Assembly (NCBI GenBank): GCA_024641735.1
Contig: JAHECN010000001.1
Location: forward strand, 1,036 to 65,035
From: Gemmatimonadota bacterium
GTDB lineage: Bacteria > Gemmatimonadota > Gemmatimonadetes > Gemmatimonadales > GWC2-71-9
Reading direction: 5' to 3'
Length of the DNA stretch: 64,000 nucleotides
In this document: positions 6,728-55,838 of the stretch, in pieces
Position numbering within the stretch: position 1 is the stretch's first letter
Layout of the letters: every line of letters starts with the position of its first letter
Made by a program: the position numbers and the translations under genes
The notes under the pieces: model-generated
The model's database searches: none
Told to the model about the DNA's origin: nothing
Seen by the model: only the letters and a program-made list of their open reading frames with translations

Positions 6728-7897
6728 TCAGCGGCTGAGGGCCTGGTCCAAGTCTGCTTGGAGGTCGCGGACGTCCTCAATGCCGACCGAGAGACGGATC
6801 AGCGAGTCGGTCAGCCCCATCTCCTCGCGGAGTGCCTTGGGCACCGAGGCGTGCGTCATCGAGGCTGGATGCCCGATCAAACTCTCCACGCCCCCGAGCG
6901 ACTCCGCCAGCACGAAGATCTTGGTCGCCTCGGCTACCCGACGGGCCCGGTCCGCGTTTCCGAGCTCAATCGACAACATCCCACCAAATCCACTCATCTG
7001 GACCGCTGCCAGAGCGTGTTGCTCGTGGGAGGGCAGACCCGGATAGTAGACCCGCTCGACGTCAGCACGATCGTCTAGCCAGGACGCCAGCACGCCGGCA
7101 CTCTCGCAGTGCGCGCGCATGCGGAGTGGCAAGGTCTTGATCCCCCGAAGCGCGAGCCAGCAGTCGAAGGGCCCCGGAACACCGCCCGCCGCGTTCTGCA
7201 GAAAACCAATCTGCTCGGCAAGGTCCTCTCGCGTGGTGATCAACGCGCCACCGATCATGTCGGAGTGGCCGTTCAGGTACTTGGTGGTCGAATGCAGCAC
7301 TATGTCTGCCCCGAGCGCCAATGGGCGCTGCAACACGGGTGTCGCGAAGGTGTTGTCCACGACCAGCAAGAGCCCCAAAGCCTGTGCCAAGTCGCCGACC
7401 GCTCGGAGATCCGTGAGGAACATCATCGGGTTGGTGGGGGTCTCGCAGTAGAGCATCCGGGTCGTCGGGCGGAGCGCGGCCTCGACGGCACCGACGGTCC
7501 GCATGTCGACGAACGAAAACTCCACCCCGAAGCGTTCATAGACACGCTGCATCAGGCGGTGACTGCCGCCATAGATATTGTTGCCGATGATGACGTGATC
7601 GCCGCCCTTCAACAGCTTCAGGACCGTGTCCAGCGCCGCGAGTCCAGACCCGAACGCGAAGGCGTGTTCTCCCCCTTCCAGGGCGGCCAGTGCCCGCTCA
7701 AGTGCCTCCCGCGTGGGATTTGCGGTGCGGGCGTACTCGTAGCCGTTGTGTGGCGCACCGAGCCCGTCCTGGATGTAGGTCGAGGTCTGGTAGATCGGTG
7801 GCATCACGGCGCCCGCGACGGGGTCGTGGTGGTGTCCGGCGTGGACAGCCAGCGTGGCGAGGTGCTGTTCGGCGTCGGGAGGCGGAACGCGGGTCAT
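6728..7897 (-). CDS. PLP-dependent Cys/Met-metabolism enzyme (cystathionine gamma-synthase/lyase family)
   Basis: Carries the PLP-lysine motif STTKYLNGHSDMIGG and family-wide similarity. I prefer the ATG at 7897 (MTRVPPPDAEQHLATLAVHAG). The track ORF extends to 7942. Confidence 0.9.
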   Translation of the reverse strand: MTRVPPPDAEQHLATLAVHAGHHHDPVAGAVMPPIYQTSTYIQDGLGAPHNGYEYARTANPTREALERALAALEGGEHAFAFGSGLAALDTVLKLLKGGDHVIIGNNIYGGSHRLMQRVYERFGVEFSFVDMRTVGAVEAALRPTTRMLYCETPTNPMMFLTDLRAVGDLAQALGLLLVVDNTFATPVLQRPLALGADIVLHSTTKYLNGHSDMIGGALITTREDLAEQIGFLQNAAGGVPGPFDCWLALRGIKTLPLRMRAHCESAGVLASWLDDRADVERVYYPGLPSHEQHALAAVQMSGFGGMLSIELGNADRARRVAEATKIFVLAESLGGVESLIGHPASMTHASVPKALREEMGLTDSLIRLSVGIEDVRDLQADLDQALSR

Positions 7898-7993
7898 CGG
7901 TCTACCGGGCAAGAGGAGGCCGAAGGTTATGTGGCGTCTCAACTTGGGGCAAGCGTAATTGTGGATCGGGAGGCCGGAGCGCTAATTTTCGGC

Positions 7994-9058
7994 ATGCCCA
8001 CTCTCGAGCATTCAGCGTCCCATCCTGTGCCCCGCATTCTGGTCGTCGATGACGACCCGATGGTGCGCGATGTGCTGACCCGCGTGCTGAAGGTGCAGGG
8101 CTATGCGGTCGAACAGGTCGGAGGCGTCGATGAGGCGCTGGACCTCTGCTATCGGGATGGAGAAGTTGACCTGGTGATCTCGGACATCCACATGCCGGGA
8201 CGCGATGGGGTGGCGTTGCTCGCGGAACTGCGCATGCGCTACCCAGACACCGCCGTCTTGATGCTCACGGGGGACGACGACGTTGGGCTGGCCGTGGAGT
8301 GCCTCAAAAAGGGTGCGATGGATTACCTCGCCAAGCCGGTGCAGATCCAAGAGGTCCGGGCCCGAGTCGAGAAGGCGATCGAGGAACAGCAACAGCGGAT
8401 CGAATTGCGGCAGCTGCGCGACGGCTACCAAGCCGAGCTGGAAGGACGCGTCCTGCAACTGTCGCAGCGCAACAAGGAAATGTTCCTCGCGCAGGTGCAG
8501 ATGGCGGTCCGGATGCTGGAAGCGAAGGATGTCTACACCCGAGGGCACTCGGCACGTGTGGCAGAATACGCGGTCTTGACCGGTCGCCAACTCGGTCTCG
8601 GTCGCGCGGTGCTTGACGATCTTCGTTTGGGCGGGGACCTGCATGACATTGGCAAGATCGGCACGCGCGACGCCGTGCTCAACAAGCCGGGACGGCTGAC
8701 GGATGAAGAGTTCACCGAGATGAAGCGGCACGTGACCGATGGGGAGGAAATGCTCGGCGTGCTTCGTGCCGACCATCCCGAGGTGTTGCACATCGTGCGC
8801 TGGCACCATGAACGGATTGATGGATCCGGATTTCCCGACGGCCTCATTGGTGCGCAGATTCCGCTTTCTGCCCGGATCGTTGGCGTGGTGGACGCGTTCG
8901 ATGCCATGACGTCCACCCGAGCGTATCGCGTCGAGCAATCCTTGGAATATGCCTTTGGCGAGCTGGAACGTGGCAAGGGACGCCAGTTTGACGCCGACGT
9001 CGTCGACGCCTTTGTGCTCGCCTTTCCGAATCGCTCTGCTGCTACCCTTCGCCACTGA
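7994..9058 (+). CDS. Response regulator with HD-GYP output domain (RpfG-like, putative c-di-GMP phosphodiesterase)
   Basis: ATG at 7994 is in frame with track ORF 7109-9058, whose upstream part is Arg/Gly-rich antisense-type sequence. REC motifs are ILVVDDDP and LVISDIHMPGRDG. A coiled linker precedes HD (LHDIGKI) and HHERIDGSGFPDGL. Confidence 0.9.
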   Translation: MPTLEHSASHPVPRILVVDDDPMVRDVLTRVLKVQGYAVEQVGGVDEALDLCYRDGEVDLVISDIHMPGRDGVALLAELRMRYPDTAVLMLTGDDDVGLAVECLKKGAMDYLAKPVQIQEVRARVEKAIEEQQQRIELRQLRDGYQAELEGRVLQLSQRNKEMFLAQVQMAVRMLEAKDVYTRGHSARVAEYAVLTGRQLGLGRAVLDDLRLGGDLHDIGKIGTRDAVLNKPGRLTDEEFTEMKRHVTDGEEMLGVLRADHPEVLHIVRWHHERIDGSGFPDGLIGAQIPLSARIVGVVDAFDAMTSTRAYRVEQSLEYAFGELERGKGRQFDADVVDAFVLAFPNRSAATLRH

Positions 9059-9069
9059 GAAAGCCTTTC

Positions 9070-10431
9070 ATGTCAGACACATTGATGATCTCGGTCTCCG
9101 GGATGCGCGGCCACGTTGGCAGTGACCTCACCCCGGAACTCGTTGCGCGCCATGCTGCCGCCCTCGGCGCCTGGGTCAAAAGCCGCGGTGGCGCGTCAGT
9201 GGTCATCGGGCGGGACGCGCGCACCTCGGGGCCAATGTTCACACTGGCGGCGACGGCCGGATTCCAGTCAGTCGGTATCGATGTGATCGATGTGGGCGTC
9301 GCGCCCACTCCCACGGTGCAGATGGCGGTGGAGTTCCATCACGCCGGCGCCGGATTGATCATCACCGCGAGCCACAACCCGATCGAATGGAACGCGCTCA
9401 AGTTCGTCGGCCCAGACGGCATCTTCCTCAATGCCGAGTCCGGTGCGGCCGTCCGTACGTTGGCGGAGCAGGGTCCCCCACGGAGCGGTTGGGATGGCAT
9501 TGGGGCCTACCGCGTGGATGACGAAGCGATCGCCCGCCACCTCGATGCGATCTGCGAACTCCCGGAGCTGGATATCCCCGCGATCCGTGCGGCGGGATTC
9601 CACGTGGCGCTCGACTGTGTGCGTGGCGCCGGTTCTCCCACGATGTTGGCGCTGTTCGAACGATTGAACGTCCGAGTCACCGGGATCAACCTCGAAGTCG
9701 ACGGCATCTTCCCGCGTGAGCCGGAACCAATTCCGGAGAACCTCGGCGCCCTGGGAGATCTGGTGCGTGCCTCTGGGGCCGACCTCGGGATGGCAGTGGA
9801 CCCTGACGTGGATCGGCTTGCGTTGGTTGACGAGACGGGCCACCCGATCGGGGAGGACTACACGCTGGCGATTGCCGCGGCCGCAGTGCTGGCGCGCCAG
9901 CCGTCAGGGAGTGGTCCCCATACGGTGGTGGCCAACCTGTCCACGTCGCTGGTCGTCGAGGACGCCGCCAAGGCTGGTGGGGCCCGCTTTCACCGGGCGC
10001 CGGTCGGTGAGGCCAACGTGGCCCGGGACATCGTCGGGGAGCGGGCGGTGATCGGCGGGGAAGGGAATGGCGGGGTGATCCTCCCCGCCCTCCACGTCGG
10101 GCGGGACGCCCCCCTTGGGGCGGCCCTCATCTTGCAACGGCTGGTGACCACAGGGGAACGACTGAGCGCCTTGGTGCGTTCGGCCCCCCAATACGTGATT
10201 GTGAAGGCGAAGGCGCCGCGGGGTGGCGACTTGGCGGCGCAGTATGCGGCGCTCAGGACGCTTTGGCCCGAGGCGACGGCGGACGACCGAGACGGGCTGC
10301 GGCTCTCCTGGCCCGACCGCTGGATCCACGTCCGTCCGTCCGGTACGGAGCCAATTGTCCGTTTGATTGCCGAGGCTCCAACGGGGGCCGACGCTGAAGC
10401 CCTGATTGCCCAGGCCCGCGCAGCGCGCTGA
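9070..10431 (+). CDS. glmM: Phosphoglucosamine mutase (alpha-D-phosphohexomutase family)
   Basis: 453 aa. N-terminal SVSGMRGHVG and active-site TASHNPIEWNALKF, giving a four-domain phosphohexomutase layout. The GlmM call leans on its position directly upstream of glmS. Confidence 0.8.
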   Translation: MSDTLMISVSGMRGHVGSDLTPELVARHAAALGAWVKSRGGASVVIGRDARTSGPMFTLAATAGFQSVGIDVIDVGVAPTPTVQMAVEFHHAGAGLIITASHNPIEWNALKFVGPDGIFLNAESGAAVRTLAEQGPPRSGWDGIGAYRVDDEAIARHLDAICELPELDIPAIRAAGFHVALDCVRGAGSPTMLALFERLNVRVTGINLEVDGIFPREPEPIPENLGALGDLVRASGADLGMAVDPDVDRLALVDETGHPIGEDYTLAIAAAAVLARQPSGSGPHTVVANLSTSLVVEDAAKAGGARFHRAPVGEANVARDIVGERAVIGGEGNGGVILPALHVGRDAPLGAALILQRLVTTGERLSALVRSAPQYVIVKAKAPRGGDLAAQYAALRTLWPEATADDRDGLRLSWPDRWIHVRPSGTEPIVRLIAEAPTGADAEALIAQARAAR

Positions 10432-10450
10432 GGCCACCGAGGAGTCGAGT

Positions 10451-12277
10451 ATGTGCGGAATTGTTGGTTATGTCGGACCCAGGCAGGCCGCCCCGATCCT
10501 CATGGAGGGGCTCAGGCGGATGGAATACCGGGGCTATGACTCGGCTGGAATCGCCATTCTCGATGACGGAGAGCTGGTCATTCGGAAGGCCGCTGGGAAG
10601 CTGGGCATCTTGGCCCAGGAGCTGGTCGGCGCCGAGCCGCAAGGCACCACCGGCATCGGCCACACCCGCTGGGCGACCCATGGTGCCCCAACAACGCCGA
10701 ACGCACACCCCCACACCGATCGGTCCGGGCGGATCGCCCTGATTCACAACGGCATCATCGAAAACGCCACCGCCATCCGCAAGACGCTCTTGGCGCGCGG
10801 GCACGAGTTCATCTCGGAGACCGACACCGAAGTGCTGGCGCACTTGGTCGGAGCATTCTACGAGGGGAATCTGGAGGAGGCGGTCGCCTCGGCGCTGCGT
10901 GACGTCGACGGCGCCTACGGTATTTGCGTGATCTCCGCGGACGAACCTGACGTGCTGGTCGTGGCCCGAAATGGCTCGCCAATCATCCTTGGCATCGGGG
11001 ACGGCGAGAACTTGGTGGCGTCCGATCAATCCGCGTTGGTGGAACACACCCGGTCGGTGGTCTATCTCGACAACGGTGAAATGGCGATCCTCACGCCAGA
11101 TGGCTATCGGGTGCGCACGCTGACGTCACGTCACGTCGACAAGCCGATCAACCAGATCGAATGGGATCTGGCCACGATCGAGCGGGGCGGCTTCGAACAC
11201 TTCATGCTCAAGGAGATCTTCGAGCAGCCTGAGTCGCTTGAGAACACCATGCGTGGACACTTGCTCGAGGAGAGCGGGAACGTCCGCGTCTATGGACTCA
11301 AGATGGATGACGAGCAGGCCAAGGCCGTCAAGCGCATCATCATCACCGCGTGCGGGACGTCGTGGCATTCGGCGCTGATCGGGAAGTACATGATCGAGGA
11401 GCTGGCGCGGATCCCGACCGAGGTGGAGTACGCCTCTGAATTTCGGTACCGCAATCCGATCGTGGACAAGGACACCTTGGTGATTGCCATCTCGCAGTCC
11501 GGCGAGACGGCAGACACCCTTGCCGCACTGCTGGAAGCGAAGCGGCGTGGTGCCAGCACCTTGGGGTTGGTGAACGTCGTCGGGTCGACGATTGCCCGCG
11601 AAGTGGATGGCGGTCTCTATCTGCGCTGCGGTCCAGAAATCGGCGTCGCAAGCACGAAGGCCTTCACGTCACAAGTGGCTGCGCTCGCGATGGTCACGCT
11701 CCGATTTGCACGCCTGAAAGACATGTCGTTGCTCGAGGGCCAAGAGTACGTCCGTGCCATGATGAAGCTCCCGTCACAGATTCAGGAAATTCTGGAGCGA
11801 GCGGACGAATTGGAGTCGTTGGCCGAGTCCTTCAAGGACTCGACCAATGCGCTGTACCTTGGCCGTGGGGTGAATTTCCCGGCGGCGCTTGAAGGGGCGC
11901 TCAAGTTGAAGGAGATCTCCTACATCCACGCCGAGGGCTATCCCGCGGCCGAGATGAAGCATGGTCCCATCGCGCTGATCGACGAGAACATGCCCGTCGT
12001 TGTTGTCGCACCGCGCGACGCCGTGCACGGCAAGATCGTATCGAACATCCAGGAAGTGCGGGCACGCGGCGGCAGGGTGATCGCGATCGTCAACGCCGGC
12101 GACGAGGAAATCTCCCAGCTCGCCGAGGCGACCTTCATCGTTCCCGAGACGCTGGACTTGTTGACGCCGATCCTTACCGTCATCCCGCTGCAGCTCTTTT
12201 CGTATTACGTGGCAGTCGCGCGCGGGTGCAATGTTGATCAGCCACGCAACCTCGCGAAGTCTGTCACGGTGGAGTAG
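10451..12277 (+). CDS. glmS: Glutamine-fructose-6-phosphate aminotransferase
   Basis: ATG at 10451 gives the canonical MCGIVGY N-terminus (Cys2 nucleophile). Two SIS domains and a C-terminal ...LAKSVTVE. Confidence 0.97.
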   Translation: MCGIVGYVGPRQAAPILMEGLRRMEYRGYDSAGIAILDDGELVIRKAAGKLGILAQELVGAEPQGTTGIGHTRWATHGAPTTPNAHPHTDRSGRIALIHNGIIENATAIRKTLLARGHEFISETDTEVLAHLVGAFYEGNLEEAVASALRDVDGAYGICVISADEPDVLVVARNGSPIILGIGDGENLVASDQSALVEHTRSVVYLDNGEMAILTPDGYRVRTLTSRHVDKPINQIEWDLATIERGGFEHFMLKEIFEQPESLENTMRGHLLEESGNVRVYGLKMDDEQAKAVKRIIITACGTSWHSALIGKYMIEELARIPTEVEYASEFRYRNPIVDKDTLVIAISQSGETADTLAALLEAKRRGASTLGLVNVVGSTIAREVDGGLYLRCGPEIGVASTKAFTSQVAALAMVTLRFARLKDMSLLEGQEYVRAMMKLPSQIQEILERADELESLAESFKDSTNALYLGRGVNFPAALEGALKLKEISYIHAEGYPAAEMKHGPIALIDENMPVVVVAPRDAVHGKIVSNIQEVRARGGRVIAIVNAGDEEISQLAEATFIVPETLDLLTPILTVIPLQLFSYYVAVARGCNVDQPRNLAKSVTVE

Positions 12278-12282
12278 GCCGC

Positions 12283-12882
12283 TCACGGCCGCCACCCCAC
12301 ACCGAGTCCAATGCCCAACCGCCGCCCGGCACGCACTGCGTAGCCGGGCGGTAGTTCTTCGGGGCCAAAGAGCGAGCCGCTCACGGCACCTTCCGCGCGG
12401 ACGATCCCTGACCAGTGTGGGGTGAACGGGACGGCACCCTCGAGCGCGGCCGTCCCGACCGTCACGGTGCGCGCATCGCCACCACTGACCGGGAAGGTCC
12501 AGCGCTCCCGTGTCGCGCCGAGCACTCCGTAGAGGTTTGGCAGCACGCCCACGCCAAGGATCCGGCGCCCCACCTCGACTCCGCCGCCCCACGCCGCCAG
12601 ATCACCGCGCGTGACGATGGCCGTCTCTGACCCACGCAGGGTGAGGTCTGAGGTGGTTCGATGGAGCGCAAGTCCGAAGCGCCACGGCCCGTAGTCGCGA
12701 CTCGCGGTGAGTGCGAGCATGCTGGGCCGGTCCGGGCCAACCTCCAGCTGTTCCGTCGCATCCTGGATGTGGGCATGGCCGGTTGATCGGGCGCTCGAGC
12801 CGAGGAGGGAGAACTGCCACTGTGCGTGGAGCGAGGCGGGGAGTGCAATGAGGACGAAGAAGGCGGCGTGGCGGCGTGACAT
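12283..12882 (-). CDS. Hypothetical secreted/outer-membrane beta-barrel-like protein
   Basis: ATG at 12882 gives the signal peptide [21 protein letters not shown]. The mature part is Gly/aromatic-rich with an alternating pattern. I recognise no family motif. Confidence 0.55.
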
Positions 12883-14067: not shown

Positions 14068-15542
14068 ATTGCAAGCGCCAGCAACACCGCCCCCGCCTTC
14101 GCGACCGTTTCCTCAAACTCCGCCTGCGGTTGCGAGTCCGCCACGATCCCGGCGCCGGCCTGGACGTAGGCGGTGCCGCCGGTGAAGACCACCGACCGAA
14201 TCGCAATCGCGGTATCGAGCGTGCGAGCACCGTACCCGACGTAGCCCACCGCGCCGGCGTACGGACCGCGCCGGGTCGGCTCCAACGTGTCAATGATCTG
14301 CATCGCCCGGACCTTGGGCGCGCCGCTGACGGTGCCCGCCGGGAAGGTCGCTGCGAGGGCATCGAGGGCGTCGAGCCCATTGCGCAGCATGCCCCGGACT
14401 TCGCTGACCAGGTGCATCACGCGAGAGTATCGCTCGGTGACCATCTGCTGCACGACGCGCACCGTGCCATACTCGGCCACGCGTCCAACATCGTTGCGGC
14501 CGAGATCGACCAGCATCAAATGCTCGGCACGTTCCTTCGCGTCGGCGTGCATCTCCGCCTCAAGCGCGAGATCGTGCGCGTGATCGCGCCCTCGCGGTCG
14601 GGTCCCCGCGATCGGACGGACCGTGACCTCGTCTTGTTCGACGCGCACCAGTACTTCGGGTGATGCGCCGGCGATCTGCAGCGGCCCGAGTGCCAGATAG
14701 AAGCAATAGGGTGACGGGTTCATCGCGCGGAGCCAGCGGTACGTCAGGAACGGGTCAGGTGCCGGCGTGACATCCATGCGCCGAGAAAGGACGATTTGGA
14801 AAGCATCGCCGGCCGCCACGTACTCCTTGCAGCGCGCCACGTCGCGTCGGTAGTCGTCGTCCGCGTAGGGTGAGGACGCGGCGGCGGGTGCGACCTCTCT
14901 GGGAGTGAGCGGAGCGAGTTGCCCCGGCACCCCGAGGCGGTCGATCCACTCGCCCATGCGCGTTTCCGCCGCGCTGATGCGGCGGTGCAGTGTTGCGTCG
15001 TCCAGCGCTGGGGAGACGGCGACGTTGGCGATCACGATGGCACGGTGATACAAGTTGTCGAGCACGAGGAGGGTGTCCACGACCATCGCGACGGCATCCG
15101 GAAGGTCACGATCGTCGGGCGGTGCGTCCGGAAGCGATTCAATGCCACGCACGACGTCATAGCCCCAGAAGCCGACCGCACCACCAGTGAACCGCGGCAG
15201 TCCCTCGATCGGCATGGCGCGATCTTGCCGCAGGAGATCACCCAGATGGGCGAGTGGCGGAAGTGCGTTCGAGTGGATCTCCCAGGTGCCGTCTGGCCGG
15301 CGCTGTTCCGCGCGGTTGCCGCGATACCGGAACACGGATTCCGGCTCGGTGGCGAGGAAGGAATAGCGCGCCCACCGTTCACCACCCTCGAGGGATTCGA
15401 GCAGGAAGCCGTATTCGCCAACGTGCACCTTCGCGAATGCGGAGACTGGCGTATCGCCGTCGAGGACCACGGCGCGGGTCAGGGGCACCCGAGTGTATCC
15501 CGCCTCCGCGGCCATCCGGCACTGCGCGAAGATGTCGCTCAT
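14052..15542 (-). CDS. trpE: Anthranilate synthase component I
   Basis: 496 aa of full-length chorismate-binding enzyme similarity (…LESLEGGERWARYSF…, …GAVGYVGY…). Ends ...ATG AGT CTT GAG TCG TGA inside H3. Confidence 0.95.
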   Translation of the reverse strand: MSDIFAQCRMAAEAGYTRVPLTRAVVLDGDTPVSAFAKVHVGEYGFLLESLEGGERWARYSFLATEPESVFRYRGNRAEQRRPDGTWEIHSNALPPLAHLGDLLRQDRAMPIEGLPRFTGGAVGFWGYDVVRGIESLPDAPPDDRDLPDAVAMVVDTLLVLDNLYHRAIVIANVAVSPALDDATLHRRISAAETRMGEWIDRLGVPGQLAPLTPREVAPAAASSPYADDDYRRDVARCKEYVAAGDAFQIVLSRRMDVTPAPDPFLTYRWLRAMNPSPYCFYLALGPLQIAGASPEVLVRVEQDEVTVRPIAGTRPRGRDHAHDLALEAEMHADAKERAEHLMLVDLGRNDVGRVAEYGTVRVVQQMVTERYSRVMHLVSEVRGMLRNGLDALDALAATFPAGTVSGAPKVRAMQIIDTLEPTRRGPYAGAVGYVGYGARTLDTAIAIRSVVFTGGTAYVQAGAGIVADSQPQAEFEETVAKAGAVLLALAMSLES

Positions 15543-16102
15543 CGTGGGGCCGCCAGCAGATAGGTTCCCGCACGTGCGATCGCGAAGCGCAACATGTCGC
15601 CTGCGGGTCGCTCACTGGGAAGGAAGAGCACCTTGGTGGTGTCGGTCAGGCGTGCCGCACCGAGCGCCGCTTCGAGGCGCGCCGACGTGGGGTAGCGTGC
15701 CGTGGATCCCGTCGGGGCAGAGAAGTGCGCCGCGTAGGAAAAGGTGCCCAAGGCAAATCCGACAAAGGTGTCATCGGTGTCGATCGCCATGCCGTAGCGG
15801 CCGGGAAGCGGGCGGACGCGCACGGTAATGCTGTCGCCCTGTGCGGCGGTCAGGATCCCCGGCGGGAAGGTCAAGATCGCGAAGACGGCGTGGTCCGGTC
15901 GGGGGTGACGAATGACGATCGTGCGTCCCGTGGCCGCCGAGAAGCGCACGACGGTGTCGGTTGGGGATGGCCCGAGGCGGTCGAGCAGCCACACCTCCGT
16001 CAAGGCAACGGCGGAGCCGTTCCCGACGGTCGGGAGGGGTGCGCCAGGCTGGGGAAGTGGGGCCGAGGTAGCGCACGCCGTGAGGAGTGCAACGGAGAGC
16101 AC
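15539..16102 (-). CDS. Hypothetical lipoprotein (start uncertain)
   Basis: The C-terminal about 185 aa of track ORF 15539-17440 reads like a real protein (…VALLTACATSAPLPQPG…, lipobox LTAC). The only in-frame start near the signal peptide is GTG at 16102. Its stop overlaps the trpE start by 4 nt. Confidence 0.55.
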   Translation of the reverse strand: MLSVALLTACATSAPLPQPGAPLPTVGNGSAVALTEVWLLDRLGPSPTDTVVRFSAATGRTIVIRHPRPDHAVFAILTFPPGILTAAQGDSITVRVRPLPGRYGMAIDTDDTFVGFALGTFSYAAHFSAPTGSTARYPTSARLEAALGAARLTDTTKVLFLPSERPAGDMLRFAIARAGTYLLAAPR

Positions 16103-16114
16103 TACCTTCCAGCC

Positions 16115-18133
16115 ATGCGACCTCTGCTCACGCCAGCCATCCTTGCGCTGGCTCTTGCCCTGCCTGGCGCTCCGGTCGCCGCCCAGCAATGGCAACGTGG
16201 CGACACGTCGGCGCTCCTGGTCCGGGCCAGCACGCAACGGTTGACCCGCGACGCAGATACCCTCCTGGCCGCGTGGCGCGCGTCGGCGCACGGCGTGGTG
16301 CGGATGGCGTCGATCATGGATCACGGGGGCACATCCCAAGAGCGAGTGATACGAGCAGACCAACTTGAAGTCGAAGTGTACGGGGAGGCCCCGAACCGAC
16401 ACAAGCAGTTCATCATTGCGTGGCGTGACTCCTCGTTTCTGCCCAACCGCATTCGGTACCACCGCGATCACCTCGGAATCGTTGCCAATGACTTCGGCAG
16501 CACCCTGCGCCTGGGGGAAGGAGAGGAGGTCCGCGATGTCCTCCATCCGCTCTCGCCGGAAGGGCTGACGCGCTACGAGTTCGCGGTAGGCGACACTCTC
16601 CAGATTGCCGGACCGAAGGGAACCGTCCGCGTGGTCTCCGTCCAAGTGCGCCCCGTCGACCCCAATGCCGCGGCTACCGTCGGGACGCTCTATCTCGACG
16701 CGGATCGCGCCGTGCTGGTGCGCTTTCGCTTCACCTTCACGGCCATCGCGTATCGCGATCCGACCGTCGAAGACATCACGGTGACACTCGAGAACGCACT
16801 GCTGGAAGGCGTCCGGTGGCTCCCCTGGCGGCAATCGATCGTGATACGGCGGGGCACACCGTGGCTGGACCTTCCCATCCGCACCGTGCTTCGCGCCGAC
16901 TGGACGATCGACGACTACGAGCTCGGCGTCACGCACCCCGCCGAAAGATTCTTGGGATTTTTCGTCGATGGACTGCGCCGGCCGGGCGGAACCTTCGCTT
17001 GGCAGGGTGCGCTGGCAGATCGATTGGAGATCCTGCCTCACGCCGAGGAGTCGATTGCGGCGGCACAACGCGACGCTGCCAGCGCGGTCGGCAAACGTCT
17101 CCTGGCAGGCCTTCCCTCGACCAGGCTGCTCGCTGGTGGGCTCTCCGATCTCGTGCGCATCAACCGGGTGAGCGGCGTGACACCGGGGCTCGGGGCTCGA
17201 ATGTCGCTCGGGGCCGGGGTGACCGCACGTCTCTACGGCGGCGTTGGACTGAGTGATGGTCGCGTCTTGGGCAGGGTGTCGGTGGGCGGGGACGTGGGGG
17301 GCGCGGCGTGGACGATCGGTGCCGGACGTGAATTGACGGATTTGGGCGATGCCCCCTCGAGTAGCGGATTCTCGGCGTCCCTTCGCGCGCTGCTGAACGG
17401 GAGTGATCCCGGGGACTGGACTTTGGTGGAGCGCGTCCATGCCGGGGTGCGCTTTCCCACATCGTCTGGTACGACGGGAATCGAGGTGGGCCGGGAATGG
17501 TCGTGGTCCGTCCCGACAGACTTCACGCCGCTCTTCGGCGATCGCACCCGAAACATCCCCTTGGGGAGTGGCGGCGCCACCGTGCTACGAGCCGTGCTCG
17601 ATCAGCGGGATGCGCACGGGGAAGGGTGGTTGCTTCACGCCGAGGCAGGCCACGCCAGCATGGGATGGAGGCGGGTCCATTGGGCGGGGCGGACGTCGGT
17701 GGGCGTCAAAGCCGGACGCGTCGTGCTGGCGGGGGAATTCGGATTGGGGAGCGAGGGTCTACCGGGCTACCGGAACTTCGTCCTTGGCGGGAGAGGGACT
17801 CTCCCTGGGCTTCCCTACCGGTCCCTCGGTGGGCAACGGATGGGACGTGTGGAGGTTGGTTGGGCACTCCCGCTCGCGGTGCCAACCCCACCAATCCCCA
17901 ACGCTCGGGCCCTTTCGCTCCCCTCGACCTTGACGCCGTTTCTGGCCGTCGGAGTCGCCGGCGGCGATCAGCCTGCCTACCCCTGGCGCGCCAGTGCACG
18001 CCTGGAACCGGTGGCGGGCGGGTATCTCGATCTCTGGGGCCCCCTCCTCCGGATCGAGGGGGGAATTGGGCTGCGATCGGGCCATCTCGCGTTCGGTTTC
18101 GATATCCACCCGGATTGGTGGCCCCTCTTCTAG
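16115..18133 (+). CDS. Hypothetical outer-membrane protein with an Omp85/surface-antigen-like C-terminal barrel
   Basis: ATG at 16115 gives the signal peptide MRPLLTPAILALALALPGAPVAAQQ. The C-terminal half is Gly-rich and beta-strand-like, with LGGRGTLPGLPYRSLGG (Omp85-like) and a terminal ...DWWPLF. I saw no POTRA motif. Confidence 0.65.
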   Translation: MRPLLTPAILALALALPGAPVAAQQWQRGDTSALLVRASTQRLTRDADTLLAAWRASAHGVVRMASIMDHGGTSQERVIRADQLEVEVYGEAPNRHKQFIIAWRDSSFLPNRIRYHRDHLGIVANDFGSTLRLGEGEEVRDVLHPLSPEGLTRYEFAVGDTLQIAGPKGTVRVVSVQVRPVDPNAAATVGTLYLDADRAVLVRFRFTFTAIAYRDPTVEDITVTLENALLEGVRWLPWRQSIVIRRGTPWLDLPIRTVLRADWTIDDYELGVTHPAERFLGFFVDGLRRPGGTFAWQGALADRLEILPHAEESIAAAQRDAASAVGKRLLAGLPSTRLLAGGLSDLVRINRVSGVTPGLGARMSLGAGVTARLYGGVGLSDGRVLGRVSVGGDVGGAAWTIGAGRELTDLGDAPSSSGFSASLRALLNGSDPGDWTLVERVHAGVRFPTSSGTTGIEVGREWSWSVPTDFTPLFGDRTRNIPLGSGGATVLRAVLDQRDAHGEGWLLHAEAGHASMGWRRVHWAGRTSVGVKAGRVVLAGEFGLGSEGLPGYRNFVLGGRGTLPGLPYRSLGGQRMGRVEVGWALPLAVPTPPIPNARALSLPSTLTPFLAVGVAGGDQPAYPWRASARLEPVAGGYLDLWGPLLRIEGGIGLRSGHLAFGFDIHPDWWPLF

Positions 18134-18206
18134 GCCGGGCGGCCAGATGCGTGCGCTGGCGTGGCTTTGTGTGGCTCCCCCCGCCTGAGGTGCCTACCTT
18201 TAGGGC

Positions 18207-20471
18207 ATGGCGAGTTTCAATGATGAGTGGTTGGCAACTATCCTGGGCCCTCTCCTTCCGGCGGGGGCCCTCGAGCGCTTGCACAGCGATCGGGAGGATT
18301 CGGGCCGTGCCTCTCTCTGGGAACGGGTTATCGATGCGCGGCTGTTGCCGGAGGCCGATGTTCTTGCCGCCCTTTCGGCGCGCTGTCGCTTGCCGATTGC
18401 GGACCTCAACCACGCCGGCGTGATCGGCAGGGACACACTCCCAGGACCACTCGCGCGTCGGTACTCGGTCGTGCCACTCAGCGTGACCGATGCCCTGCTG
18501 ATTGTTGCCACCGCCAATCCATTCGATGTTGGGGCCGAACAGTCCCTCGCCTTCGCCACCGGACGCGAGGTGCGAATGGCGCTGGCCTCGCCAAACCGCA
18601 TCCGGGAGAAGCTCGACGAGCTCTACGGCCCGGAAGCGAATGATGGGACCGTTGCCGACCTGCTCCATGATTTGGGTGGCGTCGACGGCGCCGAGTTGGT
18701 CGAAGACCCGGTGGAGGATGAGACCGAGTTCCTCGCTGCGGAGGCTGGGTCAAGACCGATCATCAAGTTGGTGGACGTGCTCCTCGCCGATGGCATCATC
18801 TCCCGAGCCAGCGACATCCACATCGAGTCGGGCGAGCAGTCCGTGGTCGTGCGGTATCGTATCGACGGTGTTCTCCGGCAGGCGATGACGATTCCGCGCA
18901 AGGCCGGAATTCCGCTCATCTCACGCATCAAGATCATGTCCGGGATGGACATCGCCGATCGGCTCCGCCCGCAGGATGGACGTGCCCGTGTCGTCCAGTC
19001 GAACGGGTCACCGGTGGACCTGCGCGTCTCGACGCTGCCAGCGACGCACGGTGAAAAGGTCGTCATCCGGATCCTGAACACCCAGCAAACTGATCTGGCG
19101 CTCGCGGCACTCGGGCTCTTCCCCGACGAGCAAGAGCGGATCCTGCGAATGCTGGAGCACAAGGAAGGGGTGGTGCTCTGCACGGGGCCGACCGGATCCG
19201 GCAAGACCACGACGCTCTACTCTTGCATCCGCGAGATTCAACGGGAAGGGATCAACATCATCACCGTTGAGGATCCGGTCGAGTATCGCCTCGGCAAGAA
19301 CATCGTGCAGGTCCAGACCAATGAGAAGCAGGGCCTCACCTTCGCCGCCGCGCTGCGCTCGATTCTCCGGCAAGATCCGGATGTCGTCCTCGTCGGCGAA
19401 ATTCGCGATCTCGAGACCGCCCAGATCGCGGTGCAGGCGTCCCTGACTGGTCACCTGGTGTTGTCGACGCTGCACACCAACGACGCGCCCAATACGGTCA
19501 CCCGCCTCATCGACATGGGGCTGGAGCCCTTCAAGATCGGCGCGGCGTTGCGCGGGGTCATTGCGCAGCGTCTCATGCGCCAGCTCTGTCTGGTCTGCCG
19601 GACGTCGCAACAGGCGTCCGAGCTCCCGTCGCGTGTCCTGCCATTCATTCCGGAAGGCGCGACGCTCTGGAAGGCGGTCGGGTGTGGGCAGTGCAGCCAA
19701 ACGGGCTATCGCGGTCGATTTTCGATCGTCGAAATCCTTGAGATGACCCCAGAGCTGGAGCGCGCTGTTGGCAACAATGCTCCGGCTACCCAAATCGGAG
19801 AGGTCGCGCGCGAGAATGGCATGCGATCACTCTTCCAGTGCGGGTTGCGGCATGTGCTCGAGGGGCGGACCTCGGTCGAGGAACTGCTACGGGTCACCGA
19901 TGTGCCGATGGAGCCCCGATCCGCCACCTCCGGTCGGAGTCTGGCCGATGCCGTGATCGCGACGGCGGCCCCGGCGGCACCAACCGCCGGGGCACACGCT
20001 GCCCAAGGGCAGGTGCTTGCCGCCGCGGACTTGCTGGACGCCCTCGAATTGGTGGACGACACGACGGGAGAGATTGCAATCGCGCCCCTCGCCGCCCGCG
20101 CGACCATCTTGCTGGTCGAGGACGAAGACACGCTGCGGCGGGTGATGAAGGACCTGCTCGAGCAGGAGGGCTACACGATCTGTGAGGCGCGCGATGGCAG
20201 CGAGGCGCTCGAGCAGGTGGACCGCCACAATCCCGACCTGGTGTTGCTCGACCTGAATTTGCCGAACGTGGACGGCTATTCCGTGCTGGCAGAGCTGCGG
20301 TCTCGCCCCGCGACGAGGGATTTGCCGATTGTCGTACTCTCGGCGCGCGGCGACGAGGACAACGAAGTGCGTGTCCTCCGCGCCGGCGCCACGGATTTCT
20401 TGACCAAGCCATTCCGTCCACGCGCGCTTGCCGCGCGGCTCGAGGCGACGCTCGCGCGTCGTCTGCAGTAG
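18207..20471 (+). CDS. GspE/PilB-family secretion ATPase with a C-terminal response-regulator receiver domain
   Basis: 754 aa. T2SSE_N-like N-terminus, Walker A GPTGSGKTTT, Walker B DPDVVLVGEIRD, His box TGHLVLSTLHTN and a CLVC...CGQC tetracysteine. An Ala/Pro-rich linker leads to a REC domain (ILLVEDEDT, LVLLDLNLPNVDG, FLTKPF) from about nt 20103. Confidence 0.9.
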   Translation: MASFNDEWLATILGPLLPAGALERLHSDREDSGRASLWERVIDARLLPEADVLAALSARCRLPIADLNHAGVIGRDTLPGPLARRYSVVPLSVTDALLIVATANPFDVGAEQSLAFATGREVRMALASPNRIREKLDELYGPEANDGTVADLLHDLGGVDGAELVEDPVEDETEFLAAEAGSRPIIKLVDVLLADGIISRASDIHIESGEQSVVVRYRIDGVLRQAMTIPRKAGIPLISRIKIMSGMDIADRLRPQDGRARVVQSNGSPVDLRVSTLPATHGEKVVIRILNTQQTDLALAALGLFPDEQERILRMLEHKEGVVLCTGPTGSGKTTTLYSCIREIQREGINIITVEDPVEYRLGKNIVQVQTNEKQGLTFAAALRSILRQDPDVVLVGEIRDLETAQIAVQASLTGHLVLSTLHTNDAPNTVTRLIDMGLEPFKIGAALRGVIAQRLMRQLCLVCRTSQQASELPSRVLPFIPEGATLWKAVGCGQCSQTGYRGRFSIVEILEMTPELERAVGNNAPATQIGEVARENGMRSLFQCGLRHVLEGRTSVEELLRVTDVPMEPRSATSGRSLADAVIATAAPAAPTAGAHAAQGQVLAAADLLDALELVDDTTGEIAIAPLAARATILLVEDEDTLRRVMKDLLEQEGYTICEARDGSEALEQVDRHNPDLVLLDLNLPNVDGYSVLAELRSRPATRDLPIVVLSARGDEDNEVRVLRAGATDFLTKPFRPRALAARLEATLARRLQ

Positions 20472-20495: not shown

Positions 20496-21602
20496 GTGCC
20501 GACCACCCCTTCCAGCAATCCCGCCGAGGCGCTCCGCCTCATCAAGCCGTCTGTGTTGGCACAGGGCGCCTATACGCTCGCGGCGCCCCAGGCGGTGCGG
20601 AAGCTCAACCAGAACGAGGCGCCGGAAGACCTCGACGCCACGCTGAAGACCGCGATTCTTTCTCGCGTTGCCGCCCGGCCCTGGCATCGCTATCCGGAAT
20701 TCGCGCCGCGGTCGTTGGTGGATCGGCTCGCCTCGCACTATGGCTGGGACCCGGAGGGGTTGCTGGTTGGCAACGGGTCCAACGAACTGATTCAGGCGAC
20801 GATGAGTGTGGTCGTCGACCGGGACGATGTGGTCGTTGCGCCGGCACCCACCTTTTCGCTCTATCGGCTGCTGGCGGCGGTGCATGGTGCGCGCTACGTT
20901 GGCGTCCCGTTCGGGAAAAACTTCGCCTACGACGTGCCACGGTTGGTGGAGACGGTGACCCGTGAGCGGGCCAAGGTGCTGGTCCTCAATACGCCGAACA
21001 ATCCCACTGGCTCCGCGGTCACGCGGCGTGATGTGGAATCGGCACTGCAGGCCACCACGGGACTCGTCATCTGTGATGAGGCCTACGTGGAGTTTGGTGG
21101 CGAAAGCGCCATCCCATTGCTTGCGGAGTATCCTCGTCTGGTGGTCTTGCGCACCTTCTCCAAGGCGCTCGGGCTCGCGGGGCTGCGCTTCGGGGTTGCC
21201 CTCACCCACCCGGCCATGGCGCGCGAGATTACCAAGGCCAAGCTGCCGTACAACGTGAACGTCATGACACTCGAAGCGGCCGAAGTCGTGCTGGACCATG
21301 CCGGCGCGATTCAGGACCGGGTGGCCGGGATCTGCGCGACACGCGATCAATTGATCCGTGACCTGCGCACCCTCCCCGGTCTCACGGTATATGACAGCGC
21401 TGCCAACTTCTGTATCATCCGGTGCTCCGCAGTGCCGGCGCGTGTGGTGTTCGAGCGCCTGTTCGAGGACTACGGCATCCTGATTCGCGACGTCTCTGCC
21501 GGTGTCGATCTGGCAGAGTGCCTCCGCATCTCGGTCGGGACACCAGAAGACATGGCGGCGATTCTCGCCGCGCTGCGAACCATCTTGGGAGAGACGACAT
21601 GA
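20496..21602 (+). CDS. hisC: Histidinol-phosphate aminotransferase
   Basis: 368 aa with a GTG start. PLP-lysine context [15 protein letters not shown] and a class-II aminotransferase layout, in a his-operon context. Confidence 0.92.
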
Positions 21603-22189
21603 GCAGGTCTGCCACGATCGAGCGCCTGACGGGCGAGACTGAGTTGCGCGTGCGCCTCGAACTCGACGGCCAGGGCGAGGCGTCGATTGAGACGGGTATC
21701 GGGTTCTTCGATCACATGCTCACGGCGCTTGCCCGTCATGGGCTCTTCGATCTGGTCGTGCAGGCCGAAGGTGACCTGCATGTCGATGGCCATCACACGG
21801 TCGAGGATACCGGCATCGCACTCGGACAGGCGATCGCGGCGGCACTGGACGATCGCGCCGGTATTCGACGGTACGGCGAGGCCACGGTTCCCTTGGACGA
21901 AGCGCTGGTGCGCGTCGTCGTCGATTGTTCCGGTCGCCCGCATCTGGAATGGCACGCCGATCCGGCGAGCTGGCAGATGGTGGGAGAGTTCGACGTCGCC
22001 CTGGCGCCGGAGTTCTTCCGGGCCGTCGCGGTCCATGGCGGGTTGACGCTGCACATCGACCTGCTCCGCGGTCGGAATGCGCATCATATTGTCGAGGCAA
22101 CGTTCAAGGCCTTTGCCCGTGCGCTCGACATGGCAACCGGCCATGATCCGCGCGTGGACGGGATCCCCTCCACCAAGGGCGTGCTGTGA
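21599..22189 (+). CDS. hisB: Imidazoleglycerol-phosphate dehydratase
   Basis: ATG at 21599 overlaps the hisC stop. Motifs GIGFFDHML and [14 protein letters not shown]. 196 aa. Confidence 0.95.
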
Positions 22190-22806
22190 TCGCCGTCGTC
22201 GACTACGGGGTGAACAATCTCGCGTCGGTCGTGCGTGCCTTGGCGGCAGCTGGACACCCTGGAACCCTGACGGCAGATCCCGAAGAGGTGCGCCGTGCCG
22301 ATCGCGTGGTGGTCCCTGGCGTCGGCCACTTTGCACGTGCGGCCGTCACACTGCAGGTGACCGGCCTGGGCGAGGCCATCCGCGAGGTCGCAGCGGCTGG
22401 GCGGCCATTGCTCGGGATCTGTCTTGGCATGCAGCTCTTCCATCAGGAGAGTGAAGAGGCACCCGGCGCGACGGGACTCGGGATTCTCCCTGGACGGATC
22501 GTCCGATTCCGGACCACACAACACGTGCCTCATGTGGGATGGGCGGAAGTTCGCCCGACGCCGGCCGGACGCGCGCACGCCGTTGCCGGGCCCGCGCTGG
22601 GAGCCGAGGGGACGTACTACTACCACGTGCACTCGTATCATCCGGCAGAGCTCCCGGACTCCGCCGTGCTGGGCACCGGGGACTACGATGGCATCTTCCC
22701 GACGTTGGTGGGCTTGGGGAGTGTACTCGGGGCACAGTTCCACCCCGAAAAGTCCCAGCAGGCCGGCATCGCGTTCATGAAATTGTTCGCGGAGTGGACA
22801 CCATGA
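22186..22806 (+). CDS. hisH: Imidazole glycerol phosphate synthase, glutamine amidotransferase subunit
   Basis: 206 aa. GICLGMQ (catalytic Cys) and FHPEKS. The GTG start overlaps the hisB stop. Confidence 0.95.
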
Positions 22807-22819
22807 CGGGCGCGCGCTG

Positions 22820-23572
22820 ATGCTGGCCCGTCGCATCATTCCCTGCCTTGACGTCGCGGACGGTCGCGTCGTCAAGGGAGTGCACTTCGAATCGTTGCGT
22901 GACGCTGGCGATCCCGTGGAGCAAGCCGCGCGCTATGACGCCGAGGGGGCGGATGAGCTCGTCTTTCTGGATATCACGGCATCGTACCGGAAGGAAAGCA
23001 CGACGCTTGCGATGGTCGAGCGGATCGCCGAGTCCATCTTCATTCCGTTCACGGTCGGCGGCGGAATTCGGTCGATTGAGGACGCCGGGGCTGCACTCCG
23101 TGCCGGGGCAGACAAGATCGGGGTCAATACCGCTGCGATTCGTGACCCAGAACTCGTCTCCCGACTCGCGGATTCCTACGGCTCACAGTGCATCGTGACC
23201 GCCGTGGATGTCCGGCGGGAAGGGGAGCAGTGGATGGTGATGGCGACGGGGGGCCGCGAGGCCACGGGATTGGAAGCACTTGCCTGGATGCGCACGCTGG
23301 AGAACCGCGGTGCGGGAGAAATTCTCCTCACGTCCATGGAGCGCGACGGGACCCGCCGTGGATATGATCTTGAACTGACGCATGCCGCGGCCACGCAACT
23401 CTCCATTCCGGTCATCGCGTCCGGTGGAGCCGGCAATCTGGCCCACCTCGCAGAAGCGTTTGAGGCCGGCGCGCATGGCGTGCTCGCGGCGTCGATCTTC
23501 CACTTTGACGGCACCACGATCGCGGATGCCCGCACCTACCTGCGGGGTCGAGGGATCGCGGTTCGGCCCTGA
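22820..23572 (+). CDS. hisF: Imidazole glycerol phosphate synthase, cyclase subunit
   Basis: 250 aa. [21 protein letters not shown] and VIASGGAG motifs. Confidence 0.96.
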
Positions 23573-31882: not shown

Positions 31883-32263
31883 ATGGCCAATATTCTGGTA
31901 GTAGACGATGATCCCGCGATGCGGCGCGCCGTGCGGATGCTCTTCGAGCGGCGCGGCCACGACGTCGGGGAGGCCGCCTCGGCAACTGAGGCCCTCGAGC
32001 TGATCAACAGCGACGCCTCGCCCGACGCGGTCGTCTGCGATGTCTTGATGCCGGGAATGAACGGGCTGGAGCTCTATCGTCGGATCGTGGAGGCGTCGCC
32101 TGGCCTCAAGGACCGTGTCGTTTTCCTGACCGGGGCCAATCGTGACCCGGCCGTGCATTTGCCGATCGAACAGCTCGGCGTCCCGTTGCTCGGAAAGCTC
32201 GACGACCTCGAGCTGGTCGTCGACGCGGTGCGCATCGCCCTGCTTCACCCCCCGATTCACTGA
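31883..32263 (+). CDS. Stand-alone response-regulator receiver protein
   Basis: ATG at 31883 gives MANILVVDDDPAMRR…VVCDVLMPGMNG…, with no output domain. 126 aa. Confidence 0.85.
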   Translation: MANILVVDDDPAMRRAVRMLFERRGHDVGEAASATEALELINSDASPDAVVCDVLMPGMNGLELYRRIVEASPGLKDRVVFLTGANRDPAVHLPIEQLGVPLLGKLDDLELVVDAVRIALLHPPIH

Positions 32264-51681: not shown

Positions 51682-52367
51682 GATCTCGAGTCGCCCCGAT
51701 CCTCGGCGTGATGCTTGATGGACTTGCCCTCGACCAGGAAGACCACGTCTTCGCCGATGTTGGTGGCGAGGTCGGCCACGCGCTCCAGGTTCCGGCTCAC
51801 CAGAAAGAGCTCCATCCCTGCCGTGATCATCTGGGGGTCTTCCATCATGTGGGTGATCAGAATACGGAACACCGACCGATGCAGCGCGTCTACCTTGTCG
51901 TCTGCCCGGCAGACGGCCCGCCCAGCCTCCGCGTCGCCCCGGATGAACGCCTCGAGCGCGTTCGAGAGCATCGCGCGAGCCAGCCGCGCCATCTCGACGA
52001 TCTCGGGCTCCGGCGTGATCGGCCGACTCTGGGTCAGCCGATGCGCCGACTGCGCAATGTTCACGGCGTGGTCGCCGACGCGCTCAAGGTCGTTGGCAAT
52101 CTTCAGCGCGGATGTCAGCGTCCGAAGATCGCGTGCCATCGGTTGCTGGAGTGCCAGCAGGTGGATGCAGTGCTCCTCGATCTCAACTTCCATCGCGTCG
52201 ATGGCGCGGTCGCCTTCGATGACGCGCTGTGCCTTGTCGGCATTGCGTTCCAGCAAGGCCTCGACCGCGAGCCCGAGGTTGGCCTCTGCCTCACCAGACA
52301 TGGTGAGCAGACGCACCGTGACCTGGCTCAGCTGTTCATGAAAATGCCGATGCGTTTCCCCGCTCAT
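51678..52367 (-). CDS. phoU: Phosphate-uptake regulator PhoU
   Basis: 229 aa with two PhoU repeats (…[11 protein letters not shown]…, …[12 protein letters not shown]…). Has 4-nt overlaps on both sides. Confidence 0.95.
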
Positions 52368-55791: not shown

Positions 55792-55838
55792 CGTGGGGGG
55801 GAGAGTACCTTCGCTCTCCCACCCCTCCGGTCACGGCT

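Follow-up and report, generated by a model that had tools for sequence, protein, structure and literature searches.

Domain organization of a receiver-fused ATPase

The stretch of DNA analyzed here (hereafter the window) comprises 64,000 nucleotides of contig JAHECN010000001.1 from a Gemmatimonadota bacterium (assembly GCA_024641735.1). It includes one open reading frame (ORF) that encodes a PilB/GspE-class secretion ATPase joined to a C-terminal receiver (REC) domain (Table 1). This ORF runs from ATG to stop with zero internal stops, and an identical 754-amino-acid product is present in the public protein collection (P0001, from a 66-kb NCBI contig). A search of the contig index for this exact gene gave no match. 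The domains and motifs that the initial annotation had assigned to this protein from the sequence alone were each recovered at their assigned places by Pfam and motif searches. For the ATPase core, the match to PF00437 (T2SSE) covers profile positions 3–370 of 370 (E = 7.7e-129, 430 bits). The Walker A and B motifs, the Asp box, and the His box are invariant in alignments of 15 and 53 family members, and the zinc motif consists of the pairs CLVC (residues 461–464) and CGQC (residues 493–496). The full-length profile match and all four boxes place the protein in the T2SSE superfamily, and the presence of an MshEN domain and the tetracysteine motif places it in the PilB/GspE subclass rather than with PilT.

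Downstream of the ATPase core, the expected Ala/Pro-rich linker and canonical REC domain were also confirmed. The linker comprises 66 residues, including 20 Ala and 5 Pro, and is followed by a full-length match to PF00072 (Response_reg; profile positions 1–110 of 111, E = 9.6e-34, 116 bits). The REC domain contains the motifs LLVEDED (residues 635–641) and TKPF (residues 733–736). All elements of a full receiver are present, namely the PF00072 fold, the acidic pocket (E638/D639/E640), the phospho-acceptor Asp (D682), the Thr/Ser position (S712), the aromatic switch (F731), and the Lys (K734). This residue set is invariant or nearly so in both family alignments. Given that the catalytic residues are all kept, the possibility of a degenerate pseudo-receiver was rejected.

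Table 1. Coordinates of the receiver-fused ATPase gene, its domains and motifs, and its flanking genes in the window.
Feature	Residues	Position	Strand	Evidence
Whole ORF, MshEN-T2SSE-REC, 754 amino acids (stop codon included)		18207..20471	+	Translation, Pfam, identical P0001
N-terminal regulatory domain, MshEN/T2SSE_N fold, without c-di-GMP motif	1–175	18207..18731	+	Pfam, AF2, motif regex
MshEN Pfam match (E = 1.9e-14)	78–144	18438–18638	+	Pfam
T2SSE ATPase core, N2 and C-terminal ATPase domains	180–562	18744..19892	+	PF00437
Walker A, GPTGSGKTTT	327–336	19185..19214	+	Motif search; invariant in family
Asp box, TVEDPVEY	353–360	19263..19286	+	Motif search; invariant in family
Walker B region, DPDVVLVGEIRD	390–401	19374..19409	+	Motif search; invariant in family
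His box, TGHLVLSTLHTND	414–426	19446..19484	+	Motif search; invariant in family
Tetracysteine zinc motif, C461-x-x-C464 ... C493-x-x-C496	461–496	19587..19694	+	All four Cys invariant in 53 sequences
Ala/Pro-rich linker	566–631	19902..20099	+	Low conservation, pLDDT
Conserved linker motif, LLxGLELVDE	609–618	20031–20060	+	Family consensus (15- and 53-sequence alignments)
REC receiver domain	634–745	20106..20441	+	PF00072
Phospho-acceptor D682 of REC	682	20250–20252	+	Within LLDLNLP, residues 680–686
Upstream gene, 672-amino-acid secreted protein with Omp85-like C-terminal beta-barrel		16115..18133	+	AlphaFold, Foldseek
his genes: hisC-like, hisB (IGPD), hisH, His_biosynth (hisA/hisF-type)		20496..23572	+	Pfam

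Conservation of the fusion

Among the 120 best relatives of this protein (61–81% identity, approximately 730–780 amino acids), all have the MshEN, T2SSE, and Response_reg domains, except for one partial sequence that lacks MshEN. The named ones are assigned to Gemmatimonadales or Gemmatimonadota. These sequences stem from NCBI, ENA, JGI, and Logan assemblies, and several of the contigs are longer than 1 Mb. Moreover, a scan of one genome per species identified at least 45 Gemmatimonadota loci with the full-length fused protein. In the 53-sequence alignment, the mean majority-residue fraction is 0.84 in the ATPase core, 0.84 in REC, 0.66 in the N-terminal domain, and 0.36 in the linker. Because the first two values are the same, the constraint on REC equals that on the catalytic core. 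GC content is flat over the ATPase-REC junction.

The initial annotation had considered an artefactual origin of the fusion, for which the only motives are the metagenome-type contig and the low complexity of the linker. That a pilB gene and a separate response-regulator gene were brought together by a frameshift, a misassembly, or chimerism is of negligible probability given the uninterrupted frame, the uniform GC content, the strong purifying selection on REC, and the same collinear layout in more than 100 independent assemblies and at least 45 species-level genomes, with the fusion conserved over the 120 best relatives.

ATPase class, predicted structure, and the N-terminal domain

The closest solved structures are the PilB proteins of Geobacter (G. 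metallireducens 5tsg/6olj and G. sulfurreducens 5zfr; approximately 409 bits over residues 24–564) and Myxococcus xanthus (3jc8; approximately 389 bits). With these proteins, the ATPase described here shares the N-terminal domain, the layout of the N2 and C-terminal domains, the Walker A/B motifs, the Asp/His boxes, and the tetracysteine zinc site. However, canonical PilB ends at approximately residue 565 without REC and is usually encoded near pilC/pilD (loci L057–L081). Vibrio GspE/EpsE (4pht, 1p9r) follows close behind, with PDB scores nearly those of PilB and the same core and zinc motif, but GspE lacks REC and no gsp genes are found near the gene described here. Among the NCBIfam models, the top match is GspE (TIGR02533; 536.2 bits, equivalog cut-off 630.25), followed by type IV-A PilB (TIGR02538; 521.7 bits, equivalog cut-off 675.65), such that neither cut-off is reached. 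The PilT family model gives just 170 bits. These comparisons place the protein in the PilB/GspE class of assembly ATPases but do not allow its assignment to either of the two systems.

In the AlphaFold2 (AF2) monomer model, the predicted local distance difference test score (pLDDT) exceeds 85 at residues 11–140 and 90 in REC. The N-terminal 145 residues and the C-terminal ATPase domain (approximately residues 300–565) are modeled with confidence, and the N2 region (residues 195–292) has low confidence. For the linker, pLDDT is below 50 at residues 571–628. The predicted template modeling score (pTM) of the monomer is 0.45, and the model has no defined docking site for REC. The linker, which is predicted to be disordered, and the low pTM suggest that REC does not have a fixed docked position.

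The signature of cyclic di-GMP (c-di-GMP) binding by MshEN domains is a tandem 24-residue motif, RLGxx(L/V/I)(L/V/I)xxG(L/V/I)(L/V/I)xxxxLxxxLxxQ (PMC5013675). Searches with strict and relaxed regular expressions of this motif found no match in any of the 15 family members examined. In the best-aligned MshEN stretch, SLWERVIDARLLPEADVLAALSAR, the key G, G, R, and Q are replaced by W, R, S, and R, respectively. Because the tandem motifs are missing in 15 of 15 members, c-di-GMP binding is not expected, and c-di-GMP input through MshEN was rejected. MshE-type ATPases, such as Vibrio cholerae MshE and PA14_29490, likewise have an MshEN-type fold before T2SSE but differ from the protein described here in these motifs.

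Distribution of the architecture

An exhaustive HMMER search was conducted against 1.84 billion representatives at 50% identity, and the best 150 were classified with local hidden Markov models of the three regions. The ranking was by total score and is hence inflated by the REC score. In this sample, 115 of the 150 representatives have a C-terminal REC, including 108 with the N-domain-ATPase-REC layout, six with ATPase-REC, and one with a triple C-terminal REC. The others comprise three proteins with an N-terminal REC, 14 tandem double ATPases, and a remainder of unfused or truncated forms. The initial annotation implied that the fusion is rare, which is contradicted by the finding of more than 100 distinct 50%-identity clusters with the MshEN-T2SSE-REC layout (35–45% identity) from several phyla, and by JGI product names that already carry it ('GspE/PulE/PilB-like protein/CheY-like'). 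Examples of C-terminal REC fusions with taxonomic names are from Elusimicrobia (L054, L083) and Actinomycetota (L056). Approximately 90% of 114 distant C-terminal RECs retain the phospho-acceptor Asp together with the acidic-pocket, Thr/Ser, and Lys residues. In PLSDB, 1470 plasmids carry a GspE/PilB homolog and none reaches 80% query coverage, i.e., no REC-fused form was found among these plasmids. This absence is consistent with the fused form being scarce in the well-studied, mostly proteobacterial cultured organisms that dominate PLSDB.

In a neighbor-joining tree of the ATPase core from the same REC-biased sample, the clade of Gemmatimonadota proteins falls within a larger clade of 115 leaves, nearly all of which have a C-terminal REC. 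The immediate sister group of the Gemmatimonadota clade includes P0136 and P0139. For three further sister-clade proteins, the contigs are just 2–4 kb long and add no information on gene context. The nested position indicates that the fusion is older than the copy in this phylum. However, a single origin of the C-terminal REC is not established, given the biased sample and the unfused PilBs that nest between two groups with C-terminal REC.

As for earlier descriptions, a related REC-MshEN-T2SSE architecture was listed in 2016 (e.g., Gmet_3473 of G. metallireducens), together with an MshEN-T2SSE-cNMP-binding architecture; the form with a C-terminal REC was not listed (Wang et al.; PMC5013675, Supplementary Table 4). 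The REC-MshEN-T2SSE proteins are likewise receiver-fused PilB/GspE ATPases. However, their REC is N-terminal, whereas that of the protein described here is C-terminal and follows a long linker. A literature search for REC-fused PilB/GspE found no paper that describes or tests one, and experimental characterization was found for neither the N-terminal nor the C-terminal layout. A recent review on PilB regulation is silent on REC-fused PilB (PMC11656802). Therefore, of the initial annotation's caveat that the architecture may be both widespread and already characterized, the first part applies and the second does not. As judged by domain architecture, the REC-fused PilB/GspE is a real and conserved regulatory design that is widespread, frequent among uncultured bacteria, and already visible to annotation pipelines.

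Several variants were observed among the distant relatives. The 14 tandem double ATPases of the best 150 (P0125, P0128–P0130, P0132, P0135, P0137, P0138, P0143–P0145, P0147, P0157, and P0158; approximately 1000 amino acids) hold two complete T2SSE cores. The Elusimicrobia locus L054 has two tandem PilB-REC paralogs (7736–9880 and 9959–12307), and in the second of these the linker between ATPase and REC contains an inserted zinc ribbon or double zinc ribbon, as in the Actinomycetota protein L056:9923–12235. The latter gene adjoins a convergent pair that encodes a histidine kinase and a LuxR-type response regulator.

Gene neighborhoods in Gemmatimonadota and in distant relatives

The initial annotation described the gene as an orphan located between an Omp85-like gene and his genes, without platform, secretin, pilin, or prepilin peptidase genes in the window. 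This description holds in all parts, and the orphan status extends to approximately 50 orthologous loci. In the window, none of the approximately 49 ORFs searched with Pfam matched T2SSF, secretin, PilM/N/O, Peptidase_A24, or a pilin. The related loci L001–L053 were inspected within 10 kb of the gene. Searches by tblastn with PilC/PilD queries from L086 and a prepilin-motif scan were negative in the window and in these Gemmatimonadota loci, whereas the same tests were positive in most of the canonical unfused PilB loci (L057–L081). When system membership is judged by co-encoded platform, peptidase, and pilins, neither the gene in the window nor those in L001–L053 can be assigned to a type IV pilus (T4P) or a type II secretion system (T2SS). 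Similarly, no histidine kinase was found within 10 kb in any orthologous Gemmatimonadota locus, and no Che genes were found near the gene in this phylum. The occurrence of T4P genes in Gemmatimonadota has been stated in general terms only (PMC10581226), and no pil genes are found in the supplement of a Gemmatimonadota ecogenomics paper.

Across the phylum, the conserved neighborhood consists of glmS, dtd, maf, an opposite-strand trpE/pabB-like gene, a gene of approximately 670 codons on the ATPase strand, and then the ATPase gene. In the window, this upstream gene ends 73 bp before the ATPase gene. Its product has no Pfam match and belongs to a family found only in Gemmatimonadota, of which some members match DUF5686. 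The Omp85-like assignment is supported by the predicted fold. The AlphaFold model (pLDDT 86, pTM 0.82) contains a barrel that matches BamA, TamA, Sam50, and Toc75 (Foldseek E of approximately 1e-7; TM-scores of 0.55–0.62 against barrel-only chains), and the N-terminal domain is beta-rich and not POTRA. The Omp85-like gene is located directly 5' of the ATPase gene in approximately 30 loci. A long shadow ORF without Pfam match lies opposite this gene in the window (15539–17440).

On the downstream side, the his genes start 24 bp 3' of the ATPase gene on the same strand. They hold this position in the window and in a few relatives, and in most relatives the position is taken by a NUDIX gene. The recurrent genes further downstream encode a TonB-dependent receptor, an fn3 protein, ClpXP, trigger factor, and Lon. 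Three downstream gene clusters (13, 16, and 19) were considered as a two-component system and rejected, as they correspond to the fn3 protein, the TonB-dependent receptor, and a protein of unknown function. Around the ATPase gene, a promoter scan found no promoter-like site, and a terminator scan found one weak hairpin (18150–18163) that is within the shuffle expectation.

The NUDIX gene starts –4 to 71 bp after the ATPase stop codon in 19 loci, with several ATGA overlaps. In the window, no NUDIX of this family was found anywhere in the 64 kb. In Gemmatimonadaceae, orthologs of the ATPase (L047–L052; approximately 50% identity over residues 5–573) that have the same synteny and belong to the same clade lack REC. 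Instead, their ORFs continue in frame into a NUDIX domain, and Pfam identifies MshEN, T2SSE, and NUDIX (L047:9983–12121, L048:3014–5260, L049, L051, L052, and L055; proteins P0394–P0513). For one such Gemmatimonadaceae protein, the MshEN-T2SSE-NUDIX layout is present in 120 of the 120 best relatives, and JGI names such fusions 'PilB-like protein/8-oxo-dGTP pyrophosphatase'. These proteins thus resemble the REC-bearing form in the orthologous ATPase and the syntenic position, and differ from it in having NUDIX in place of REC. The NUDIX domain of these fusions and the free NUDIX encoded downstream of the REC-bearing forms are orthologs with a common C-terminal ending, G(D/N)(A/G)Gx(V/L/T)(E/D)(D/G)VLR(I/V/A). 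The Gemmatimonadaceae locus L039 keeps both a diverged REC and a separate NUDIX. These patterns point to a putative functional link between the ATPase and NUDIX that goes beyond a plain pilus-motor model.

Outside of the phylum, some distant fused relatives lie in other contexts. In L086 (P0141, 41% identity), the fused ATPase gene is directly followed by a prepilin peptidase gene, a gene for a T2SSF platform protein, and three pilin-like genes. In L084 (P0136, 45% identity), it is followed by a single-domain REC gene, a gene for a small membrane protein, and an N_methyl pilin gene, and in L082 (P0194) by a homolog of this small membrane protein gene and a pilin-like gene. The fused ATPase gene of L085 (P0272) lies 3' of genes for CheW, a methyl-accepting chemotaxis protein, CheB, an NtrC-type regulator, a sigma factor, and two single-domain RECs. 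In L083 (Elusimicrobia) and L056 (Actinomycetota), the fused genes are orphans as in Gemmatimonadota. The wider family with C-terminal REC is therefore linked, at least partly, to type-IV-filament machines and chemosensory pathways. In addition, L082 (12049–12968) and L084 (5999–6990) share a pair of genes for a single-pass membrane protein (LExYRxxxGxLPxxLxEAG, no Pfam match) and a pilin-like protein with a class-III signal peptide, which may represent a minimal filament module.

Proposed function and alternative explanations

The favored interpretation, to which we assign a probability of roughly 0.55, is that the gene encodes an active hexameric motor of the PilB/GspE class, which comprises the assembly motors of T4P and T2SS, and that a tethered receiver capable of phosphorylation provides its regulatory input. 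Because the catalytic residues of both the ATPase and REC are intact, it is reasonable to infer that the motor receives a covalently attached two-component input. Furthermore, some distant relatives adjoin PilD/PilC/pilin genes or a chemosensory cluster, which makes a phosphorelay-controlled motor of a type-IV filament the best reading. D682 would be phosphorylated by a histidine kinase or CheA whose gene lies elsewhere, and the phosphorylated REC may then alter the ATPase activity, the hexamer dynamics, or the recruitment to the platform. REC may act by docking on its own or a neighboring protomer, or through PhoB-like REC-REC dimerization between protomers. Filament assembly or secretion would thus be switched on or off, with the other parts of the machine presumably encoded elsewhere in the genome. 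Such a receiver would act in cis as the CheY-like regulators of PilB do in trans, and in this lineage the receiver would replace the c-di-GMP input of MshE-type ATPases.

The same logic of receiver-to-extension-ATPase regulation is found in PilG/PilH of the Pseudomonas Pil-Chp system, PixG/PixH and PATAN-REC proteins of Synechocystis, and the REC of FimX; receivers are established as regulators of PilB in trans for the Pil-Chp and the cyanobacterial Pix/PATAN systems (PMC11656802). However, these regulators are separate proteins, whereas the receiver described here is within the motor polypeptide. Contacts of trans-acting REC regulators with the T4P motor are documented in two reports (bioRxiv 10.1101/2021.06.11.447907; PMC11181946). 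For PilG/PilH, no direct interaction with PilB was reported according to a 2024 review (PMC11656802), and the mode of action of CheY-like regulators on the pilus extension motor has yet to be settled. In this regard, a natural and strongly conserved covalent fusion of a phosphorylatable REC to PilB/GspE provides Rosetta-stone evidence that receivers can act directly on such motors. It also offers a single-polypeptide system for measuring in vitro how phosphorylation affects the ATPase activity and the state of the hexamer. [quoted passage not shown] The ATPase-NUDIX link could hint at control of these motors by a nucleotide signal. The significance is limited, as the architecture is common in databases and annotated automatically, and the locus adds no partner genes that reveal function.

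Several points weigh against the regulated-motor interpretation. The ATPase scores fall under the NCBIfam equivalog cut-offs of GspE and PilB alike. No platform, PilM/N/O/Q, secretin, peptidase, or pilin genes are present in the window or within 10 kb in approximately 50 Gemmatimonadota loci, and the existence of a partner machine elsewhere in the genome is an assumption. No cognate kinase was identified within 10 kb in the orthologous loci. A simple pilus-motor model does not account for the conserved NUDIX partner or for the presence of NUDIX in place of REC in Gemmatimonadaceae. Finally, of the direct two-component control implied in the initial annotation, the fusion itself is genuine, the covalent input is a reasonable expectation from the intact residues, and control of the motor by phosphorylation, in either direction, is putative.

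A possible, though doubtful, alternative is that the Gemmatimonadota ATPase has lost the function of a pilus or secretion motor and has a lineage-specific role with NUDIX and possibly the Omp85-like protein. It could be a signaling ATPase or a nucleotide-linked switch, with REC in most families and NUDIX in Gemmatimonadaceae as alternative regulatory or effector modules on one chassis. This explanation is favored by the orphan status in all of the approximately 50 loci despite persistent housekeeping synteny (glmS, dtd, maf, and trpE-like), the NUDIX gene at –4 to 71 bp downstream in 19 loci, the in-frame NUDIX that replaces REC in Gemmatimonadaceae (120 of 120 best matches of one protein), and the Omp85-like gene immediately 5' in approximately 30 loci. 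A role of PilB as a signaling protein also has a precedent in Myxococcus, as described in one report (PMC5544727). However, strong conservation of the kind typical of working motors is seen in the ATPase motifs, the zinc site, and the N-terminal domain, and the nearest fused relatives outside of the phylum are found in pilin/PilC/PilD clusters. The lack of that NUDIX in the 64 kb of the window indicates that the ATPase can exist without an adjacent NUDIX gene. The adjacency to the Omp85-like gene is broken in the Gemmatimonadaceae loci L047 and L049 and may be mere synteny. Moreover, pilB genes that are located apart from other pilus genes are common in bacteria, as exemplified by pilF of Thermus.

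It is unlikely, in our assessment, that REC serves as a localization or scaffolding handle, or as a chemosensory phosphate sink, rather than as an allosteric regulator, although this explanation overlaps with that of a regulated motor. As a handle, REC would bring the motor to the pole or to a kinase array, comparable to the proposals for PilG/PilH and the REC of FimX. The long disordered tether and the low pTM speak against a fixed REC-ATPase interface, the fused relative in L085 lies within a Che cluster with extra single-domain RECs, and REC-dependent localization of PilB/FimX is known without a demonstrated direct catalytic effect (PMC11656802). However, no Che genes are found near the gene in Gemmatimonadota, the LLxGLELVDE motif and the very high conservation of REC fit either explanation, and the sequence holds nothing that separates the two.

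A further and rather improbable explanation is a phylum-specific module of the Omp85-like protein, the PilB-class ATPase, and NUDIX that is neither T4P nor T2SS and functions in an undescribed envelope or nucleotide-signaling process. In such a module, the ATPase would be a regulated switch or motor. The in-frame replacement in Gemmatimonadaceae suggests that REC, through phosphorylation, and NUDIX, by hydrolyzing a nucleotide signal, may be interchangeable control or effector modules.

Signaling genes and other features of the window

The only histidine kinase gene found in the window is a PhoR-like gene located 38 kb away from the ATPase gene and paired with its own PhoB-like response regulator. 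The best family match of the fused REC is PhoB, and the REC of this PhoB-like regulator is its closest paralog in the window (43% identity). This similarity is too unspecific, and PhoR is not proposed as the phosphodonor of the fused REC. Both genes are part of a phosphate regulon at 50140–60575 (–). This block contains genes for Ppx/GppA, PhoU, PstB, two Pst permeases (BPD_transp_1), a PstS-like binding protein, a 359-amino-acid product of unknown function, the PhoR-like kinase (HAMP-PAS-HisKA-HATPase), and the PhoB-like OmpR-family regulator.

Two other receiver genes were observed. A putative c-di-GMP phosphodiesterase with REC and HD-GYP (HD_5) domains is encoded at approximately 8000–9058 (+), within the ORF at 7109–9058 and approximately 9 kb 5' of the ATPase gene. 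A single-domain CheY-like receiver of 126 amino acids is encoded at 31883–32263 (+), between trigger factor and an M1 peptidase. The latter gene is syntenic with L001:19353–19730, and there is overlap with the beginning of the peptidase ORF as listed. Nothing in the window ties the REC-HD-GYP gene, the PhoR/PhoB-pst-phoU cluster, or the single-domain receiver gene to the ATPase gene.

Among the other genes in the window, an ORF at 3–2111 (–) that runs off the window start encodes a large protein in which an OmpR-type winged-helix DNA-binding domain (Trans_reg_C) precedes an AAA_16 ATPase domain. In addition, the gene at 39797–42793 (–) encodes a 998-amino-acid protein with Sortilin-Vps10/BNR repeats and a FlgD-Ig-like segment.

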